Below, one piece after another: positions 4,402 through 13,495 of a DNA stretch of 64,000 bases; the stretch's first letter is position 1, and every line of letters begins with the position of its first letter. Position numbers and translations under genes: made by a program. Origin of the DNA: Moraxella sp. (GTDB lineage Bacteria; Pseudomonadota; Gammaproteobacteria; Pseudomonadales; Moraxellaceae); contig JAUMUJ010000006.1 in NCBI GenBank assembly GCA_030530785.1, positions 529 through 64,528 on the forward strand, read 5' to 3'. The notes below the pieces were generated by a model, which made no database searches, had not been told where the DNA came from, and saw nothing but the letters and a program-made list of their open reading frames with translations.

Positions 4402-4450
4402 ATCATAACAAATTTTTGGGGCGTTTGCAATGAAAATGAGAATTTTTAGC
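4402..4450 (-). promoter_or_regulatory. Iron-operon promoter with adjacent Fur box
   Basis: -35 TTGCAA (4430-4425), 17 nt, TGt-TATGAT (-10 at 4407-4402). GAAAATGAGAATTTTTAGC at 4432-4450 matches 14/19 of the Fur consensus GATAATGATAATCATTATC. Confidence 0.75.
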
Positions 4451-7382
4451 TTTTGTGATATGGCTTTAACAAACGTTTAATAATATCCACCACCCTATCA
4501 CTCTCAAACTGCGTAACAAATCTCACATTCATCGCCCCTTGCTCATTCATGGCATTAAACCACCGCTCGGCGTGTCTGATTTTTTGGTTTTCTTTTTGGC
4601 GTAACTCGTCTTTATCTTTTACGCCTTTGCTTTCTAGCACCAAGTTTAGCACATCGCCCTTAGCGGTTTTGACAATATAAGCAAAATCAGGCGAATAAGT
4701 CTCCCCACCTGCCACAGGGATTTTTATGGCGTTTTTGGGAATTTTGGTAAAAACAACGACTTCTTGCACGTCTTCTGCGGTTACGTTTTGACCTTCAATA
4801 TTACTGTCAAAAAACACCCGCTCAAACAAAAAACTCTCAAACGGTTTATTGTCGGTCAGCACACCCCAATCTTGATTAATGTTAATCTCAGGCAACGGCA
4901 AGCCGTTTTTGTCGGTGAGTTTGGTTGGGTGAATTTGATTGCTGATTTTTTGATAGCCAATTTCAAATTTATTTAAAGAATATTTCAATAAATAATCATT
5001 AAATCCTTTATCAATCATTCTCACTGTCTCATCATTCATAAACTTATCAATGGCAATGTCATTTTTTAATTCAAAAAATGCTTGGTGCAATGTCGTCATC
5101 TTGATATAGGATTTTTGAGAAAGTTTTTGTAAAAATTGACGATAATTTAAAGTAACAATCGGCTCAAATAGTGCATTTTCTATGCTTTCATTGATTTTAA
5201 AATCAATGAGTTTATCTGCCGTTTTTATCATCTCTTGGGTTTTTGTACTAATGCCCGTCATGGTAAATTTTGCTTTATTTTGACCCAAAAAATCCACCAA
5301 TAAAGACAAAATGTCCTGCTCGCTCATCTGATATTGCAAAATTGCCTTTTGGTTTATCGCTTCCCACAAGGATTTTAATTCATCGTATTTGCCTGTACGC
5401 ATGGCGACTTTGGTTTTTTGTTTATCATCACTACTTGCTATTTTTCCTTGTTTTAAGGTATTATAATTAAAGGCATTTGGGAATTTTTGTTTGATTGTCT
5501 CATACGCTCCTGCCAACAATTTATCATCGTCATCAATTAACCCAAGCTCGTATAATTCATTTGCCAGTACTCTTCTTTTAACATCTGGATAAGCCGATTG
5601 TATTTTTTGAAATAAATAATCATCAAACACCACAGGGATTATTTCACGCTCGGCAGTTTTATTAATGTCCGCTTTTAATTGCACAACAAAATCACGTTCA
5701 CTACTATCCACAAAATAATTTAATTTAAAATCAGTATCCTTAACACGGCTCATAAATTCATTTACAGGCAATCTTAGCCCCCGACCCACTTCTTGTAATT
5801 TACTCGTTTCTGAACCGCTAGAACGCAATTTGCAAATACCAAATACATTAGGATTATCCCACCCTTCACGAAGTGTCCATTTTGAAAAAATAAAACGGCG
5901 TGGATTATCCAATGACAACAAACTTTCTTTATCGTGCAAAATCTCGCCAATTTCTTTGGCGATTTTTTCATCATCACTACTGTTATCTTTTGAAAAATAA
6001 CCGCCATGCGTTGCCGATACGTCCGCCAACACCATTTGCAACGAACGATAAAAATCCGTGCCTATCATCGCCTGTTCTAGGGCTTTTTTAGCTTCGTCTT
6101 TGACTATTATTTCAAAATCGCTTTTTAAACTCCCAACAATATCATCGCCGTCTCGGTATCCCTTAATGTTATCAATAAAAAATAAGGTCAATGGCTTGAT
6201 TTTATCCATACGATTTAATAATGCTTTTTCGGTTTCAAAATGCACCCTGACTGCTTTTCTTATCATGGCATGAAATACCGTATTAGCATAAGAAAAAGGA
6301 TTGATATGATTTCCTGTTTTTAATTCTATGCCATTACTTAATATAACCCTGCCTGATTTTAAGTCTTGCAAGTACAACTCATCAATATGATGATGAATTT
6401 TTTGTAAATTATCGCCTTTATTTAAAATAAATCTTGCATTTGATTTTTTGCTTTCTATTAATTCAAAAATAGCCTGCTTGGTATCACTCTCCACCAGTTT
6501 TATTTTTGTGCCGTCATCGCCTTGAATGTCTGTAATGTGAGCAATCACACCTTTGACCAAATCCTGATTAAAAGCATCAATGGCACTTAACCGATAAATC
6601 AAATTTTTAAATCTATCATTAAATGTCGCCCCATAACGCAATATGTATTGGGGATTTAGACTTAATAATGATTGCCATGTTTTGTTATTATCATCAAATC
6701 GGTGTGGCTCATCAATAATCAATATCGGATTGACCGAACCAATCGCTTCAAAAGGCTTATCAAATTTATCTTTTAATAAAATACTGCCGTCATTACCACT
6801 ATCTTCGCCTTTCATGGTTTTGCTATTGACCATGCCCATATTTAATAATAATACATGAATTTTTTGGACATTATCAGCTTGTACAAATCGCACAATCTCG
6901 CTTGGCATGGGATTTGTGCGTTTGCCCTTTTTGGTCTTTTGACTTTCTACGACATATAGTTCAATTTCGGCTTGTCCATATTCCAAATTAAAATCCAATC
7001 TAAAATGATTTTTTAAAGCGTCCGATTTTAAAAACTGCTCCGTCCCTGCTTTAATGGATAAAGTCGGTACGACAATCACAAATTTATAAATACCCAATCT
7101 TTTATGCAATTCATACATGGTTTGGGTATAGGTATAAGTTTTGCCCGTGCCTGTCTCCATAGAAATGTCTAAGACATTGCTATAATCAGGCGATTTATCT
7201 ATTTGATTATCCGATTGGATTTGGTGAATGTTATTTTTATAACGCTCGCCCATAAAAGACAATGTGGGATTTTCTCCCCTGTCATTGTCTTTTTTATGGA
7301 CATTATCAAAAACACTTAATACCGCATTTACCGCCCCGATTTGGTGTGGCAAGTTTTTTTCGTAATGAAATCCTTTTTTCAT
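4446..7382 (-). CDS. res: Type III restriction-modification endonuclease subunit Res
   Basis: SF2 helicase motifs METGTGKT, IDEPH, LREGWDNPNVF and QEVGRGLRL; C-terminal PD-(D/E)xK (YSPDF...LESK); overlaps mod. Confidence 0.95.
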   Translation of the reverse strand: MKKGFHYEKNLPHQIGAVNAVLSVFDNVHKKDNDRGENPTLSFMGERYKNNIHQIQSDNQIDKSPDYSNVLDISMETGTGKTYTYTQTMYELHKRLGIYKFVIVVPTLSIKAGTEQFLKSDALKNHFRLDFNLEYGQAEIELYVVESQKTKKGKRTNPMPSEIVRFVQADNVQKIHVLLLNMGMVNSKTMKGEDSGNDGSILLKDKFDKPFEAIGSVNPILIIDEPHRFDDNNKTWQSLLSLNPQYILRYGATFNDRFKNLIYRLSAIDAFNQDLVKGVIAHITDIQGDDGTKIKLVESDTKQAIFELIESKKSNARFILNKGDNLQKIHHHIDELYLQDLKSGRVILSNGIELKTGNHINPFSYANTVFHAMIRKAVRVHFETEKALLNRMDKIKPLTLFFIDNIKGYRDGDDIVGSLKSDFEIIVKDEAKKALEQAMIGTDFYRSLQMVLADVSATHGGYFSKDNSSDDEKIAKEIGEILHDKESLLSLDNPRRFIFSKWTLREGWDNPNVFGICKLRSSGSETSKLQEVGRGLRLPVNEFMSRVKDTDFKLNYFVDSSERDFVVQLKADINKTAEREIIPVVFDDYLFQKIQSAYPDVKRRVLANELYELGLIDDDDKLLAGAYETIKQKFPNAFNYNTLKQGKIASSDDKQKTKVAMRTGKYDELKSLWEAINQKAILQYQMSEQDILSLLVDFLGQNKAKFTMTGISTKTQEMIKTADKLIDFKINESIENALFEPIVTLNYRQFLQKLSQKSYIKMTTLHQAFFELKNDIAIDKFMNDETVRMIDKGFNDYLLKYSLNKFEIGYQKISNQIHPTKLTDKNGLPLPEININQDWGVLTDNKPFESFLFERVFFDSNIEGQNVTAEDVQEVVVFTKIPKNAIKIPVAGGETYSPDFAYIVKTAKGDVLNLVLESKGVKDKDELRQKENQKIRHAERWFNAMNEQGAMNVRFVTQFESDRVVDIIKRLLKPYHKS

Positions 7383-9325
7383 AGCACTCTGACCACCAAA
7401 TGAATGTTTAGGTTCTTTTTATTATTATACGTTGTTAATGCCTGTGCCAATTCTTTTTGTTTGGCACTGTCCACACTAAGCCCAAATAATACAATCCGCT
7501 CTATCAAAAATGATTTGTCATTATCCAATTTATCAAGCAAGGCTTTAATATGAACGCTATCAAAATCAAGATAAATGATATATAAGGTTTTATCGCATAA
7601 ATAAGCGGTATAATCTGCCAAATTGATACTTTGTGCTTTATCCGTCAAAACATGACCGTCATATACTCGCCATGTTGTCAAAAGCGTGTGGTATTCATCA
7701 TCGCTAAATGTATGGCTAAATAAATCAGGCAAGGCAGTTTGTGGGTTTATCTCATTATCATCAATCGCCAAAAAGTTATCCACCGTCTCAAAAATTTTAA
7801 ATCCCAAATCGCCTGTATAATCGGGATTTTCGCTTTGTATTTTTTGGGCGGAGCGGATAATACGTTCTTTGGTAATCTCAAAAATTGTATCAAACCCCGC
7901 TTTATGGGCTTCTTTTTTTGACTTTTCATCAAGTTGAACTAAAATAAATTGACGATTACCCTTATCTTCGGCATTTAATTGCATGACTGCATGAGCAGTT
8001 GTACCCGAACCTGCAAAAAAGTCTAGGATTATGTCGTTCTTATCTTGCATCATCTGTAAAAAATACTTAATTAAAATTGATGATTTTGGGTAGTCAAAAT
8101 ATTTTCCACCATCAAAAATATCTTTTACTTCCAATGAACCCAATTCTGTTCTACCCAATTTTGAATCAATAATAGAAAATGGTTTTTTACCATCATCTTC
8201 ATTACGATATAATTTTTTATGCAATTTGTATTCACCTGCCACAATAGCAACCTTTAATTTATGTCGTTCATTCATCATTTTCAATTTTGACCACGTCCAA
8301 CGCCCCAAAACACCTTTTGTCTGATAAGGAATGATTTTGATGATATCCTGATGATTTGATATTTGTGAAATTTCTTCATCTATATATATCTCTTCTGTTT
8401 TTGTATCAAAATATACAGGAAAATGCAATGTTGGAACATCTTCCATTTTTCCACCAATCCCACGCTTCCATAAACGCTCAATATAAAAATATCCTAACTC
8501 ATCTTGTTTAGTGTATTTTTCATCTAACTCTTCATCAGATAATGGAAATCTTGAAATAATAGCACGATTGGTTTTTCTGTAAACAAAACAGTACTGATGT
8601 TGCTGTGCAAAATCATTTGAGCTTTGAGAGCCTGCTGGTGCTACATTAACAATTAATTCAGCAATAAAATTCTCTTCCCCAAAAATTTCATCACATAATA
8701 ATTTTAATTGAGCTTGTTCATTATCATCAATGCTGATAAATATCACGCCGTCATCTTTTAATAATTCACGGGCGATATAAAGACGGGGATACATAAAGGT
8801 TAGCCAAGCACTATGAGAATTGGATTTTTTGGCAGTAAAATCAAGCACTCTTTTGGCTTCATCCAATGACATATCGGCAAGCTGTGCCAGTTGCTCGGGC
8901 GTGAATTTACGGTCATCTTGATAAACAAAACCGTCCGACCCTGTATTATAGGGCGGGTCTATGTATATCATTTTTACCGCTCTTTGATAGGCGTTTTTTA
9001 GGTGTTTTAATACTTCTAAATTATCGCCTTTGATAAGTAGGTTTTGGCTATTGATATTTTGGGGAGCTTGATTGTGCGATTGATTTTCGCCAAATAAGGT
9101 AATGGGCGGACAATCACGCAAATAACGGGCATAGGATTTGCCAAGCCAATTTAATTGATAAAATTCACGACTGCTAACAATGTCTGATGATTGTAATTCA
9201 CTTGCCATTTTTTCGGGTAAAAAATGACCGTCTTTATCAAAACAGTTGGGGAAATGCTCTTTTAAAAGGGTAAGTTTTTCGTTTTGGGTAGGATTATTTT
9301 GGTCAAAAAGTTTTTGGATAATCAT
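7379..9325 (-). CDS. mod: Type III R-M adenine methyltransferase subunit Mod
   Basis: IYIDPPYNTG (motif IV), central variable TRD, ILDFFAGSGTT (motif I); lies upstream of res. Confidence 0.95.
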   Translation of the reverse strand: MIIQKLFDQNNPTQNEKLTLLKEHFPNCFDKDGHFLPEKMASELQSSDIVSSREFYQLNWLGKSYARYLRDCPPITLFGENQSHNQAPQNINSQNLLIKGDNLEVLKHLKNAYQRAVKMIYIDPPYNTGSDGFVYQDDRKFTPEQLAQLADMSLDEAKRVLDFTAKKSNSHSAWLTFMYPRLYIARELLKDDGVIFISIDDNEQAQLKLLCDEIFGEENFIAELIVNVAPAGSQSSNDFAQQHQYCFVYRKTNRAIISRFPLSDEELDEKYTKQDELGYFYIERLWKRGIGGKMEDVPTLHFPVYFDTKTEEIYIDEEISQISNHQDIIKIIPYQTKGVLGRWTWSKLKMMNERHKLKVAIVAGEYKLHKKLYRNEDDGKKPFSIIDSKLGRTELGSLEVKDIFDGGKYFDYPKSSILIKYFLQMMQDKNDIILDFFAGSGTTAHAVMQLNAEDKGNRQFILVQLDEKSKKEAHKAGFDTIFEITKERIIRSAQKIQSENPDYTGDLGFKIFETVDNFLAIDDNEINPQTALPDLFSHTFSDDEYHTLLTTWRVYDGHVLTDKAQSINLADYTAYLCDKTLYIIYLDFDSVHIKALLDKLDNDKSFLIERIVLFGLSVDSAKQKELAQALTTYNNKKNLNIHLVVRVL

Positions 9326-9573: not shown

Positions 9574-11541
9574 TCAGTGGTATCTTTGGTAGCTTAGCAT
9601 GACCTTTTGCCAGTCGTGATGACTTTGCTGTTCGTGGCGGGCGGTCAGTCTGATGGCATTTTGGGGCGACAGGTTGTACGAAATGACGGTGTCAATGTGT
9701 GTCTGCCAGACGTGTTTGTCCTGCCAAAACGGCACATTGACCGTCAGCGAACCCTGCCACTTATCCGATGTCCGCCACAGACAATGCACCTTTGGCGACA
9801 CGCCTGCTCGCACGCCATCATCTAGGGCTTTACCCACCTGCACCATGCCTTGCACATAGCCACTACAGACCATGCGTTCATCAAAAAACGCTTTGGCATA
9901 GCCTGTGTGTGCCGACATGACCCCCACCCCATGCGTGTCGGTGGTGCTAAAATCCCCCTTATCATCTACCGCCACTTGCCGATAACCAAAATCCGTCCCC
10001 CAAGAGCGTGGGCGTTTATAGGTGGTGATGGGGTTGATGGCGTGTACCGACAAAAAGTCTGCATGATGTAACTTAACCTTATCATCACGCACCATCACTG
10101 CCGTATCCAAAAACAGCAGTTGCCCTGTGGCATAACCCATATGCGGGTCATCAAAACCATGATACGCCACCCGATAGCCTAAGCTAAGTGCCGTGTCACC
10201 TTGCATTTGCCCCACACTCACACTCACTGCCTTATCGCCATGCCCAAGGCTAGGGTCATACGCTCTGGGTGGTTCATCTCGCTGTTTGGCGACATCAAGC
10301 ACACTTCTTAGTACCAGCAGTTCTCTTAGTCGCTGTTGAGCAAAGTCATTATCCGTCTTTTTGTTAGCGTGCTGTAAATACAAGTCATCGTACGCCATTT
10401 CAAGCAGTTTTGCTTTATCCACATCATCTTTGTTCGCCAACACAGCCTCAGGCTTCACATCAGGCTTGGTCAGTTGGTGAGCGGTTTTACCAAAGGCTTT
10501 ACCATGCTGTTTTTCTTGATGACGCAAATACGTCTCCAAAGCAGGACGGTAGGTTTCTTTGTTAATCAGCCCTGCACGGCGAAATTCCTTGACCGTCTCA
10601 ATCGGCACCACCGTCCATGTAAATTTATCTTGTAGATTTAGCTCAGGACGCACCAAATCCACCAAACCCATCAAAGCATAAGAGCAGTTTTTATCCATAA
10701 AATAATACGGAAAACGAACGTGTTGCATCTCCCAGATGTGTTTGACCAAAAACGCCACTTCATCAGGGGTCAAAGACAGCTCATACTCCCACATATCACG
10801 GCTTTCTAAGTCGCCGTACTCTTTGGTTTTATGAAAATAGCGCATGAGCGAATATTCACCACGATATTTACCCGTCAATCCCTTATAGGCATAGACGGCA
10901 CTGCTCTCATTGACAGGGGTGATGGCAGCATAATTTAGGGCATACGCCACCAAATCCATGTTTTTGCCCGCCTGCTTGATGGGGTCAATGCGAAGCAATG
11001 TATGCCCAAACATAGAGCCAGGGTTGCCCATATAATCGGTGGCAAAAATTAGGGTCATGCTGTGCGGATTGACCTTACTGTACCAATCGTGAAATTTGGC
11101 ACACGCCACATCAGCCAGCTCATCGGGCTTTATGCCCAATTTGTCCACCAGCCATGCCGTACGAGCAGGAAAGCGACATTGAGGCGAGTTTTCGCTGGTA
11201 TCGGTCAAAAGAGCGTCAATCGTCTGGTTCATTTCCAGTGTCAAATCCGATTTGCCCTGCGGATGCACAAAAAACCCATCATAATCCACACGGCTATGCT
11301 CATGATTCACATAAAACAGCCGTTGCCAAACTTTATCTTTGGCAAGATTGAGCGTGCGAGCTTTTTCTTGATAATGGGCGATGTTGGCGTGATGACCGCC
11401 TGATGAGCGAGGGTCGGCGTCTTGCTCAACGCTTAACGCCATCGTCTCGTCTGACCACAAAGGCGATGGCACTGCCCACGCACAAGACATCATCGCCATG
11501 CACAGCACCGCCCATAGGCTTTTTTGTAATTGAGTTTTCAT
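9574..11541 (-). CDS. DUF4105 (Lnb N-terminal, papain/NlpC-like His-Cys) protein with probable C-terminal beta-barrel
   Basis: Sec signal ending AWA; CRFPAR, SMFGHTLLRI and YYFMDKNCS motifs; C-terminal amphipathic beta-strands ending VMLSYQRYH. Confidence 0.75.
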   Translation of the reverse strand: MKTQLQKSLWAVLCMAMMSCAWAVPSPLWSDETMALSVEQDADPRSSGGHHANIAHYQEKARTLNLAKDKVWQRLFYVNHEHSRVDYDGFFVHPQGKSDLTLEMNQTIDALLTDTSENSPQCRFPARTAWLVDKLGIKPDELADVACAKFHDWYSKVNPHSMTLIFATDYMGNPGSMFGHTLLRIDPIKQAGKNMDLVAYALNYAAITPVNESSAVYAYKGLTGKYRGEYSLMRYFHKTKEYGDLESRDMWEYELSLTPDEVAFLVKHIWEMQHVRFPYYFMDKNCSYALMGLVDLVRPELNLQDKFTWTVVPIETVKEFRRAGLINKETYRPALETYLRHQEKQHGKAFGKTAHQLTKPDVKPEAVLANKDDVDKAKLLEMAYDDLYLQHANKKTDNDFAQQRLRELLVLRSVLDVAKQRDEPPRAYDPSLGHGDKAVSVSVGQMQGDTALSLGYRVAYHGFDDPHMGYATGQLLFLDTAVMVRDDKVKLHHADFLSVHAINPITTYKRPRSWGTDFGYRQVAVDDKGDFSTTDTHGVGVMSAHTGYAKAFFDERMVCSGYVQGMVQVGKALDDGVRAGVSPKVHCLWRTSDKWQGSLTVNVPFWQDKHVWQTHIDTVISYNLSPQNAIRLTARHEQQSHHDWQKVMLSYQRYH

Positions 11542-11565
11542 GCGTCATCACCTTTTTAAAAATTC

Positions 11566-11602
11566 AAAAAAACAAAACCTTATGGAAACCCACAAGGTTT
11601 TG
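11566..11602 (-). terminator. Rho-independent terminator/attenuator between the DUF3015 and DUF4105 genes
   Basis: CAAAACCTT-N12-AAGGTTTTG stem followed by T7 on the minus strand. Confidence 0.6.
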
Positions 11603-11626
11603 AATGCACCAAAAGGCTAATGCCAA

Positions 11627-12097
11627 TTAAGCGTATGTTTTAAGCACATCATCACCAGACAAAACTTGATGCAATGCAGTTACCACGTCAGCAGTCGTTG
11701 CACCAGTGGTGTAGATGTTGGCAAAGTTGGCTTTTACCACAGTGTAAAAACGAGCTTGGTCTTGGTCTTGGATATTAAGCAGTTGAGCCAATACTTCTAG
11801 GTTTTCGCCTTGACCTGTCGCCATATCACGAGCCAAAGCTTCTGAATTACCATCAACAAACTCAACCACTTGTACGGTAACTTTGTTGCCACGCTCACCA
11901 CAACCTAATGTACCAAAAGTGATGCCAAAAAGCTGGTTGGCAAAAGTGCCGTTGGTGGTTGCACCTAGGATTTTGGCGACTTTACCTTCCTTACCTGCCC
12001 AAACTTGTGTGCCAAGACCACATCCGATGTCGTTATCAGCAAAGGCAACTGTTGAGCTAAATACCAATGCACTGACAAGAGCGATTTTCTTAAACAT
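11627..12097 (-). CDS. DUF3015 family secreted protein
   Basis: Start at ATG 12097 (GAGG RBS). Signal peptide ending AFA; GCGLG...TTNGT...FGITFGTLGC and LARDMATGQGE motifs. Confidence 0.82.
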   Translation of the reverse strand: MFKKIALVSALVFSSTVAFADNDIGCGLGTQVWAGKEGKVAKILGATTNGTFANQLFGITFGTLGCGERGNKVTVQVVEFVDGNSEALARDMATGQGENLEVLAQLLNIQDQDQARFYTVVKANFANIYTTGATTADVVTALHQVLSGDDVLKTYA

Positions 12098-12244
12098 GAG
12101 AACCTCAAAGTAACAGTTAAGTGTGTCGTGGTTAATTTTCCACGAATCTATAAACATGATATAGATGATGAAAATATAACATAATAAAATTTTAAATGCA
12201 ACTGAGCATTACAAAAAAACACAGGTAAGAACCTGTATTTGTTG

Positions 12245-13495
12245 TTAGCTGACCTTTGGTGCTGTGCCTTTTTCAATCACATCCACGTCCACGATGACCT
12301 CTTTGGCATTGTCCATGCTGGGCAGTTCATACATGGTGTCAAGCAAGGCGTTTTCAATGATGGAGCGAAGCCCCCTTGCCCCTGTTTTGCGAGTCATCGC
12401 TTTTTTGGCGATGGCAATCAGAGCGTCTTTTTCAAAGCTCAAATTCGCCCCTTCCATGTCAAACAAGTATTGATACTGCTTGGTTAGGGCATTTTTAGGC
12501 TCGGTTAAAATTTGGATAAGTGCGTCTTCATCAAGCTCATCAAGCGTGGCAATGACGGGCAGTCGCCCGATAAACTCAGGAATGATGCCAAATTTGACCA
12601 AATCTTCTGGCTCAACTTCACGAAACAGCTCGCTGATTTTGGTTTCTTTTTTGGTGCGGACGCTGGCATTAAAACCCATGCCCGTCTCTTGGGTGCGTTG
12701 TTCGATGATTTTATCAAGCCCTGCAAACGCCCCACCAACAATCATCAAGATGTTGCTGGTGTCCACCTGAATCATCTCTTGATTGGGGTGTTTGCGACCG
12801 CCTTGTGGCGGGATATTGGCAACTGTACCCTCAATGATTTTTAACAAAGCCTGCTGAACGCCCTCTCCCGACACGTCCCGAGTGATGGAGACGTTTTCGC
12901 CTTTTTTGCTGATTTTGTCAATCTCATCAATATAGATGATACCACGCTGGGTGCGTTCTACGTCATAGTTGGCGGACAATAACAACTTTTGGACGATGTT
13001 TTCCACATCTTCGCCGACATAGCCCGCTTCGGTGAGCGTGGTGGCATCTGCCATCGCAAACGGCACGTCCAACATTTTGGCAAGCGTCTGAGCCAGCAGA
13101 GTTTTGCCCGAACCTGTCGGCCCGATGAGCAAAATGTTACTTTTAGCAAGCTCCACAGGGGCAACCTTATCACTTTCTTTGACTTTTAGGCGTTTGTAGT
13201 GATTATAGACCGCCACCGACAAGGCTTTTTTGGCGGTGTCTTGACCGATGACATACTCATCTAAATGCTGACGAATCTCTTTGGGGGTGGGCAATTTGGC
13301 ACTTGCCCAGTCTTTGTCGCCTTTTTCAGTGGTTTTGGCGATTTTTGCGTCCAAATCTTTGACACCCAGCATATCGCCACACAGCTCCACGCATTCATTA
13401 CAAATGTTGGTGTGATTCATGCCAGAGATGAGTTTGGCGACATCGCTTTTGGGTTTGCCACAAAAATCACAGCAAGGCTCTTTGGTTTTTGTCAT
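12245..13495 (-). CDS. clpX: ATP-dependent Clp protease ATP-binding subunit ClpX
   Basis: C4 zinc finger CDFCGK...ICNEC; GPTGSGKT; [12 protein letters not shown]. Confidence 0.98.

Follow-up and report, generated by a model that had tools for sequence, protein, structure and literature searches.

A widespread two-gene envelope module pairs a DUF3015 protein with a predicted outer-membrane enzyme carrying an Lnb-type domain

Results

A 64,000-nucleotide stretch of the genome of Moraxella sp. (assembly GCA_030530785.1, contig JAUMUJ010000006.1, positions 529 to 64,528; hereafter the window) carries a gene for a small exported protein of the DUF3015 family followed by a gene for an enzyme with an Lnb_N catalytic domain, and, judged by sequence, this pair is one copy of a widespread two-gene envelope module. 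The enzyme is predicted to be an outer-membrane barrel that carries an Lnb-type permuted papain-like domain. The reading that we favour, with a probability of about 0.5, is that it is an acyl-enzyme tethered to the outer membrane and facing the periplasm, which would draw acyl chains from inner-leaflet lipids or from lipoprotein anchors, with the DUF3015 protein as its subtype-specific acceptor, carrier or regulator. A preliminary description of the window, made from the DNA letters, had singled out the two genes as a co-oriented pair. What it saw was confirmed throughout, and both genes do lie on the minus strand, between clpX and a type III restriction-modification island (Table 1; all coordinates are positions in the window unless a locus is named).

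The DUF3015 and enzyme genes are linked across genomes

A pattern scan of species-representative genomes gave 595 confirmed DUF3015 loci, and the best 80 were examined for synteny and for hairpins; these came from Moraxella, Acinetobacter, Vibrio, Pseudoalteromonas, Colwellia, Psychromonas, Photobacterium, Zoogloea and Hylemonella and from one metagenome-assembled genome of the Myxococcota. The enzyme gene was found directly downstream of the DUF3015 gene and on the same strand at 78 of the 80 loci, the remaining two stopping at a contig edge. Among 41 relatives, DUF3015 was present in 8 genomes of 7 genera and lay each time (8/8) directly upstream of a co-oriented DUF7840 gene, and when 201 genera of the class were sampled evenly, with DUF3015 in 25 genomes and DUF7840 in 32, the pair was adjacent in all 25 DUF3015 genomes and in the order DUF3015 then enzyme in 24. 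The pairing is not due to chance; the neighbourhood survey that the preliminary description had proposed as a check came out on the side of co-conservation.

Copies in tandem were seen for DUF3015 and for the enzyme gene, as were duplications of the whole pair; in one genome (G091, locus L114) two enzyme genes stand in tandem behind DUF3015. Long reading frames at DUF3015 in two other genomes (G232 and G125) were considered as gene fusions and rejected, being overlapping frames in high-GC DNA with the genes separate; no longer DUF3015-containing proteins or fused forms were found in our search, which is weak evidence. In the Acinetobacter calcoaceticus-baumannii complex the pair (locus L116, 2469-6113) sits between hemE/DUF817 and a convergent chromosomal class C beta-lactamase gene (PF00144), a neighbourhood that is not conserved elsewhere.

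The enzyme is predicted to join an Lnb-type catalytic domain to an outer-membrane barrel

The enzyme begins with a Sec-type signal peptide (residues 1-23, cleavage between AWA and VP), and a convincing lipobox is absent from its N-terminus, as it is from that of DUF3015. Its catalytic domain matched Lnb_N, formerly DUF4105, at E 6.7e-48 (163 bits against a gathering cut-off of 22.2), in line with the correspondence to Lnb named in the preliminary description. NCBIfam models gave no match to the enzyme or to DUF3015 at E up to 0.1, a scan of ten members of the enzyme family at E 10 gave no match to Pfam models for LRAT/PLAAT, Tox-Act1, NLPC_P60 or other peptidases, and a sequence search of solved structures with the enzyme profile gave no match.

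Conservation was read from an alignment of 106 diverse homologues. They were drawn from a set of 4586 clusters (50% identity), in which 2758 matched with E below 1e-30. The His and Cys of SMFGH and DKNCS, which the preliminary description had picked out as a pair in permuted order behind a Sec signal, were retained in 105/106 (H180) and 106/106 (C286) homologues with the His preceding the Cys; N285 was kept in 106/106, and N203, kept in 94/106, is the likely third catalytic residue. Further invariant residues (Y242, R248, W251, E252, E271 and Y279) point to an extended pocket. Also conserved are C122, within DUF7843 (104/106), and its partner C147, just downstream of that domain (106/106), and in the barrel region H434 is invariant and R457, H461, D465, S513 and W514 are near-invariant.

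An AlphaFold2 model of the enzyme built from this alignment (mean predicted local distance difference test score, pLDDT, 93.5; predicted template modelling score 0.89) runs from a disordered linker and a helical domain, through an alpha/beta domain (residues 161-332) and a five-helix domain (335-413), to a 23-residue coil and 12 strands (437-654), which are modelled at a pLDDT of about 97. The coil, residues 414-436, is Pro-rich and lies between helix 398-413 of the five-helix domain and strand 1. The C-terminal beta-strands foreseen in the preliminary description are modelled as a closed, even-stranded barrel, and this barrel stands in the same model as the conserved His/Cys pair. In a Foldseek search every match listed was an outer-membrane barrel protein; the papain-like domain superposed on solved permuted NlpC/P60 members, TseH (best) and YiiX being its nearest solved structures, and the barrel was nearest to solved outer-membrane barrels, with autotransporters, Tsx, NanC, KdgM and LpxR all matching. 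The last residue of the enzyme is F, Y or W in 93/106 homologues; the present copy ends in YQRYH (last codon 9577-9579), with Tyr before a terminal His that occurs in no other homologue, and thus has an unusual beta-signal.

DUF3015 is a predicted Sec substrate with a conserved loop between two invariant cysteines

The small protein matched the Pfam DUF3015 model at E 9e-37 (126.6 bits against a cut-off of 25). The ATG taken as its start is preceded at 5 nt by a GAGG ribosome-binding site (12106-12103) and was preferred to an in-frame ATG further upstream; the resulting N-terminus is of Sec type, with MFKK, a hydrophobic core and a predicted cleavage site. The preliminary description of a Sec substrate of 156 residues with two Cys is borne out by this prediction and by 42 diverse homologues, in which both cysteines, C26 and C66, are invariant together with G27, G29, T48, N49, F57, G58, T60, G62, T63 and G65; the best-conserved stretch, bracketed by the two cysteines, reads TTNGT..N..FG.T.GT.GC. 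In an AlphaFold2 prediction of the DUF3015 monomer, residues 73-156 formed a helical domain (pLDDT about 94) and the conserved loop was unfolded (pLDDT about 43). The lack of a predicted fold for this best-conserved part in isolation is consistent with a role in docking to a partner.

On its predicted features DUF3015 is not a lipoprotein. A lipobox of the form L-[AS]-[GA]-C was looked for and is absent, C26 being preceded by D-I-G here and by P-N, D-N or G-N in homologues, and the A-x-A cleavage site stands 5-8 residues ahead of C26. No C-terminal sorting signal, hydrophobic tail or polymerising repeats were found; the last residues hold a short conserved motif, L..Y, of which L152 and Y155 are invariant in the 42 homologues and lie 1 to 3 residues from the C-terminus (11630-11644), and which may be a C-terminal recognition motif. 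Our searches found no structural or sequence relatives beyond the DUF3015 family, and a sequence search of solved structures returned a chance match only (E 0.47).

Probable excess of the small protein over the enzyme

Between the two genes lies a terminator-like hairpin (Table 1), from which the preliminary description had deduced an excess of the small protein. It folds at -17.7 kcal/mol (z -4.56), which none of 200 shuffled sequences equalled, and a hairpin with a T-tail was present within 120 nt past the DUF3015 stop at 74 of the 80 loci as against 12/80 shuffled controls. As only about 30 nt, the AGGTGA ribosome-binding site included, separate the hairpin from the enzyme start and leave no room for a separate promoter, the enzyme gene must be transcribed by read-through.

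Codon usage agrees with this picture, as indirect evidence. With weights from 25 ribosomal-operon genes of the same genome and a ranking among 1693 open reading frames, the codon adaptation index (CAI) of DUF3015 was 0.722 (99th percentile; ribosomal set mean 0.709) and that of the enzyme 0.558 (44th percentile), values to be read with the confounding by base composition that is weighed in the Discussion. DUF3015 is probably made in large excess over the enzyme, since the terminator is conserved and ribosomal-like codon usage is seen in DUF3015 and not in the enzyme; the excess that had been deduced from the stem is thus best called probable.

Orphan and lipoprotein-partnered relatives of the enzyme

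The present genome also encodes an orphan paralogue of the enzyme (622 aa; G000:C40:11641-13509, minus strand; locus L003, 610-2478, minus strand), which has DUF7843, Lnb_N and DUF7840, has no DUF7842 and no DUF3015 neighbour, and separates Lnb_N from the barrel by only about 37 residues. It adjoins a divergently oriented AmpD-like Amidase_2 gene. Of the 24 further Moraxella genomes sampled, 23 have the orphan type, and the DUF3015 pair occurs in 2 of 25, the present genome included. In a maximum-likelihood tree of the enzymes, obtained by a quick search (and with one Vibrio cholerae row, a wrong open reading frame, disregarded), the orphan clade sat on a long stem as sister to the DUF3015-linked enzymes of Moraxella and Acinetobacter, inside a Moraxellaceae clade. 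Read provisionally, as befits a long branch, this suggests an old duplication in the Moraxellaceae with later loss of the DUF3015-linked pair from most Moraxella.

A third type of context was seen in other Gammaproteobacteria, where a PEGA-like lipoprotein of 122-128 aa stands in place of DUF3015 beside a shorter subtype of the enzyme. Three such lipoproteins (Table 1), of which one matches the PEGA model, have a common tail, N-I-L-S-G-G..G-S..D-Y..K-M-W-x-Y; none was found in the present genome, which is 87% complete. A motif common to DUF3015 and these lipoproteins was considered and rejected (hhalign probability 0.45%). In one genome (G153, locus L113; G153:C1:1999500-2008500) a single strand carries in turn a PEGA lipoprotein, a type C enzyme, DUF3015, a type A enzyme and a lipoprotein alpha/beta hydrolase. 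Since both orphan and lipoprotein-partnered enzymes exist, the role of DUF3015 is specific to a subtype, and DUF3015 cannot be the universal substrate of the family.

DUF7842 was considered as a candidate docking domain for DUF3015 and was not adopted. Its 19 matches all fell in enzyme genes of DUF3015-bearing clusters and none in orphan enzymes, but the model is an insensitive one: several DUF3015-linked and lipoprotein-linked enzymes have a gap of roughly 105-113 residues without a match at this position, and only the Moraxella orphan paralogue is truly without space for the domain. Immediately after the enzyme gene comes a lipoprotein alpha/beta hydrolase (Hydrolase_4) at 5 of the 80 loci, as also in three order-level genomes, with none found in the Moraxellaceae or Vibrio loci; in G232 such a hydrolase gene adjoins a second DUF3015 gene without an enzyme.

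Discussion

We favour the acyl-enzyme reading because the relatives of the catalytic domain with a characterised activity use a Cys thioester to transfer fatty acyl chains. Lnb is the lipoprotein N-acyltransferase of Bacteroides and requires Cys148 for its activity, an Asn66-His49-Cys148 triad having been proposed from an overlay with TseH (PMC11573676), and in the permuted NlpC/P60 group the Tox-Act1 clade, which targets lipids, has DUF4105 as its sister (PMC12994826). The lipoprotein hydrolase next to some copies of the module adds a lipid context. The present enzyme shares with Lnb the family of the catalytic domain, the conserved His and Cys and a candidate Asn, but the anchor of Lnb is a set of five predicted inner-membrane helices, whereas the model of the present enzyme has no hydrophobic helices after the catalytic domain and has the 12-stranded barrel; the extra helical domains DUF7843 and DUF7842, the dedicated DUF3015 partner and a host with its own Lnt also set it apart. 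With LRAT/PLAAT and Tox-Act1 enzymes it has in common a Cys-His chemistry, the His before the Cys, and a catalytic Cys in an N-C motif at the start of a helix, although those enzymes are soluble or helix-anchored and have neither a barrel fusion nor a partner of the DUF3015 type. LpxR, OMPLA (PldA), PagP and PagL are likewise enzymes placed in the outer membrane, but their active site is part of the barrel, whereas here the catalytic residues lie in a separate N-terminal papain-like domain; the barrel of the present enzyme looks like an anchor in the model, its likeness to LpxR-type barrels being generic for barrels of 12 strands.

The proposed mechanism would run as follows. Transcription would start upstream of DUF3015 in one operon, with most transcripts ending at the hairpin and a minority reading through into the enzyme gene. 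The enzyme would be exported by Sec and its C-terminal barrel inserted into the outer membrane, leaving the three N-terminal domains to hang on the periplasmic face beside the inner leaflet, an orientation that we infer from the model. Cys286, with His180 and probably Asn203, would form a thioester acyl-enzyme with a chain taken from an inner-leaflet glycerophospholipid or a lipoprotein anchor and then passed to water or to an acceptor, as happens in the related Lnb, LRAT/PLAAT and Tox-Act1 enzymes. DUF3015 would dock through its Gly/Thr/Asn loop, closed by a disulfide, and would serve as acyl acceptor or substrate, as a lipid hand-off protein or as a regulator; where present, the Hydrolase_4 lipoprotein would clear the lysolipid.

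Several observations weigh against this acyl-enzyme reading. The enzyme family is also present without DUF3015 in some lineages, the Hydrolase_4 neighbour is found at a minority of loci and was not found in the present genome (87% complete), and the periplasmic orientation rests on rules of barrel topology, not on a measured contact. The CAI, moreover, is confounded in this genome by the GC content of third codon positions (GC3; r -0.63, with high CAI at low GC3), DUF3015 being still at the 97.9th percentile among 194 GC3-matched open reading frames.

A narrower form of the acyl-enzyme reading, which we regard as quite unlikely, is that the outer-membrane enzyme covalently fatty-acylates DUF3015 in the periplasm, at its mature N-terminus or in the Cys26-Cys66 loop, with an inner-leaflet phospholipid as donor and with the hydrolase of some loci removing the lysolipid. 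If true, an abundant soluble protein would become an outer-membrane-anchored lipoprotein once exported, by a route that does not depend on Lol.

The Cys-His domain could instead cut or cross-link peptide bonds, as a peptidase or transpeptidase that processes DUF3015 (for example between loop and helical domain), attaches it to peptidoglycan or an envelope protein, or trims stem peptides in the manner of classical NlpC/P60 enzymes. The best solved match of the papain-like fold is to TseH, and processing would suit an abundant substrate and a scarce enzyme. The domain is nevertheless squarely Lnb_N, a family whose only characterised member is an acyltransferase and whose sister clade targets lipids; the enzyme matches no peptidase model even at E 10 and has no peptidoglycan-binding domain, DUF3015 has no sorting motif, and orphan and lipoprotein-partnered paralogues exist. 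We consider a peptidase or transpeptidase unlikely. The sortase-like or pilus-like logic put forward in the preliminary description survives as a minority possibility only, DUF3015 having no sorting signal, repeats or lipobox and fused forms (weak evidence) not having been found.

Export of DUF3015 by the barrel, with the Cys-His domain as a processing or gating protease and DUF3015 assembling on the cell surface, appears very unlikely to us. An abundant subunit gene, a terminator and a scarce outer-membrane component do resemble fimbrial and amyloid operons, which pair a major subunit with an usher or, in functional-amyloid export, use FapF with FapD, and the DUF3015 loop is rich in Gly, Asn and Thr and disordered in isolation. 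The barrel matches, however, are generic for 12 strands, autotransporters, Tsx, NanC, KdgM and LpxR scoring as well or better; a folded domain would not fit through the lumen of such a barrel, DUF3015 has a single short loop plus a helical domain that folds well, with no amyloid repeats, and the barrel is retained in orphan paralogues that have no DUF3015 beside them.

Still more doubtful is that the N-terminal domains are displayed on the surface as an autotransporter-like passenger acting on outer-leaflet or external substrates. In Pseudomonas aeruginosa a lipolytic enzyme, the type Va autotransporter esterase EstA (3kvn), does sit on a 12-stranded barrel, but only that barrel aligns with the present enzyme; EstA carries a GDSL hydrolase as its passenger and uses a pore helix to bring it to the surface. 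In the predicted secondary structure of the present enzyme a lone helix of this kind is not seen ahead of strand 1: helix 398-413 belongs to the five-helix domain and is followed by the Pro-rich coil. The conserved H434, R457, H461 and D465, at the barrel start and the strand 2-3 connection, fall by strand parity on the periplasmic side, which suggests an interface; the homologous domain of Lnb is periplasmic and the DUF3015 partner has a Sec signal only. That the protein is simply the Lnb of its host, making triacylated lipoproteins, is highly improbable despite the strong Lnb_N match with its conserved Cys and His, as a canonical Lnt is encoded in the genome (TIGR00546, 322 bits against a cut-off of 132.9; G000:C55), so that the enzyme is not needed for lipoprotein N-acylation, and as no NCBIfam model, any for Lnb included, matches at E 0.1, the barrel in place of inner-membrane helices implies the wrong membrane for the Lgt-Lsp-Lnt pathway, and most species of the genus are without the gene pair.

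Our literature search found no paper on DUF3015, on DUF7840-7843, on the barrel-fused Lnb_N architecture or on the two-gene module; DUF3015 was mentioned only in a Leptospira expression table, and DUF4105 only in papers on Lnb, on Tox-Act1 and on the classification of papain-like enzymes. The family of the catalytic domain, first linked to a function only in 2024, is thus known, and we found no paper that describes the outer-membrane architecture or the obligate partner. To our knowledge, few enzymes of the Gram-negative outer membrane are known, namely PagP, PagL, LpxR, OMPLA and OmpT. If the acyl-enzyme reading is right, the clusters counted above would constitute a large new family of outer-membrane enzymes, carrying out an unrecognised step of acyl transfer or acyl removal at the inner face of the outer membrane. 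The presence of the module in Moraxella, Acinetobacter, some Vibrio and many environmental Gammaproteobacteria gives it medical and ecological interest; the strictly linked and probably abundant DUF3015 offers a tractable experimental handle, and the three types of context (DUF3015, small PEGA-like lipoprotein, orphan) a natural set for comparison.

Locus and neighbouring genes

A second terminator-like hairpin directly follows clpX (Table 1) and sets tig-clpP-clpX apart from the DUF3015 pair, so that the module lies outside the clp transcription unit. Just past it is a possible sigma-70 promoter of the pair, a tentative candidate whose -35 element matches at 3/6 positions and which falls under the threshold of a consensus scan.

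Table 1. Features of the module and its surroundings, with the small lipoproteins of other loci
Feature	Position	Strand	Remarks
DUF3015 gene	11627..12097	-	156 aa plus stop; PF11220
Sec signal peptide of DUF3015	12038..12097	-	residues 1-20; predicted cleavage between AFA and DN
Cys26-Cys66 loop of DUF3015	11900..12022	-	Gly/Thr/Asn-rich; most invariant residues; from alignments
Helical C-terminal domain of DUF3015	11630..11881	-	residues 73-156
Intrinsic-terminator-like hairpin and U7 tail	11563..11602	-	stem part 11602..11573; 13 bp stem, 4 nt loop
Enzyme gene	9574..11541	-	655 aa plus stop; AGGTGA ribosome-binding site 6 nt upstream
DUF7843 helical N-terminal domain	11143..11349	-	residues 65-133; Pfam E 9.7e-19
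Lnb_N (formerly DUF4105) permuted papain-like catalytic domain	10582..11094	-	residues 150-320; PF13387
His180 codon	11002-11004	-	SMFGH
Asn285-Cys286 codons	10684-10689	-	DKNCS
DUF7842 helical domain	10270..10554	-	residues 330-424; E 1.1e-29; five helices in model
DUF7840 12-stranded beta-barrel, outer-membrane type	9577..10260	-	residues 428-655 (Pfam match 428-654)
Possible sigma-70 promoter of the pair	12173..12201	-	TTGCAT, 17 nt spacer, TATATT; read by eye
Terminator-like hairpin after clpX	12240..12217	-	
clpX	12245-13495		upstream flank of the pair
Small PEGA-like lipoprotein, locus L111	3694-4062	-	
Small PEGA-like lipoprotein, locus L113	6609-6983	-	
Small PEGA-like lipoprotein, locus L109	3960-4346	+	

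Directly downstream of the enzyme gene is a type III restriction-modification pair (4446-9325, minus strand; mod 648 aa, res 978 aa), a block with a GC content of 0.35-0.39 as against about 0.45-0.47 in its flanks, which is likely to be an inserted island.

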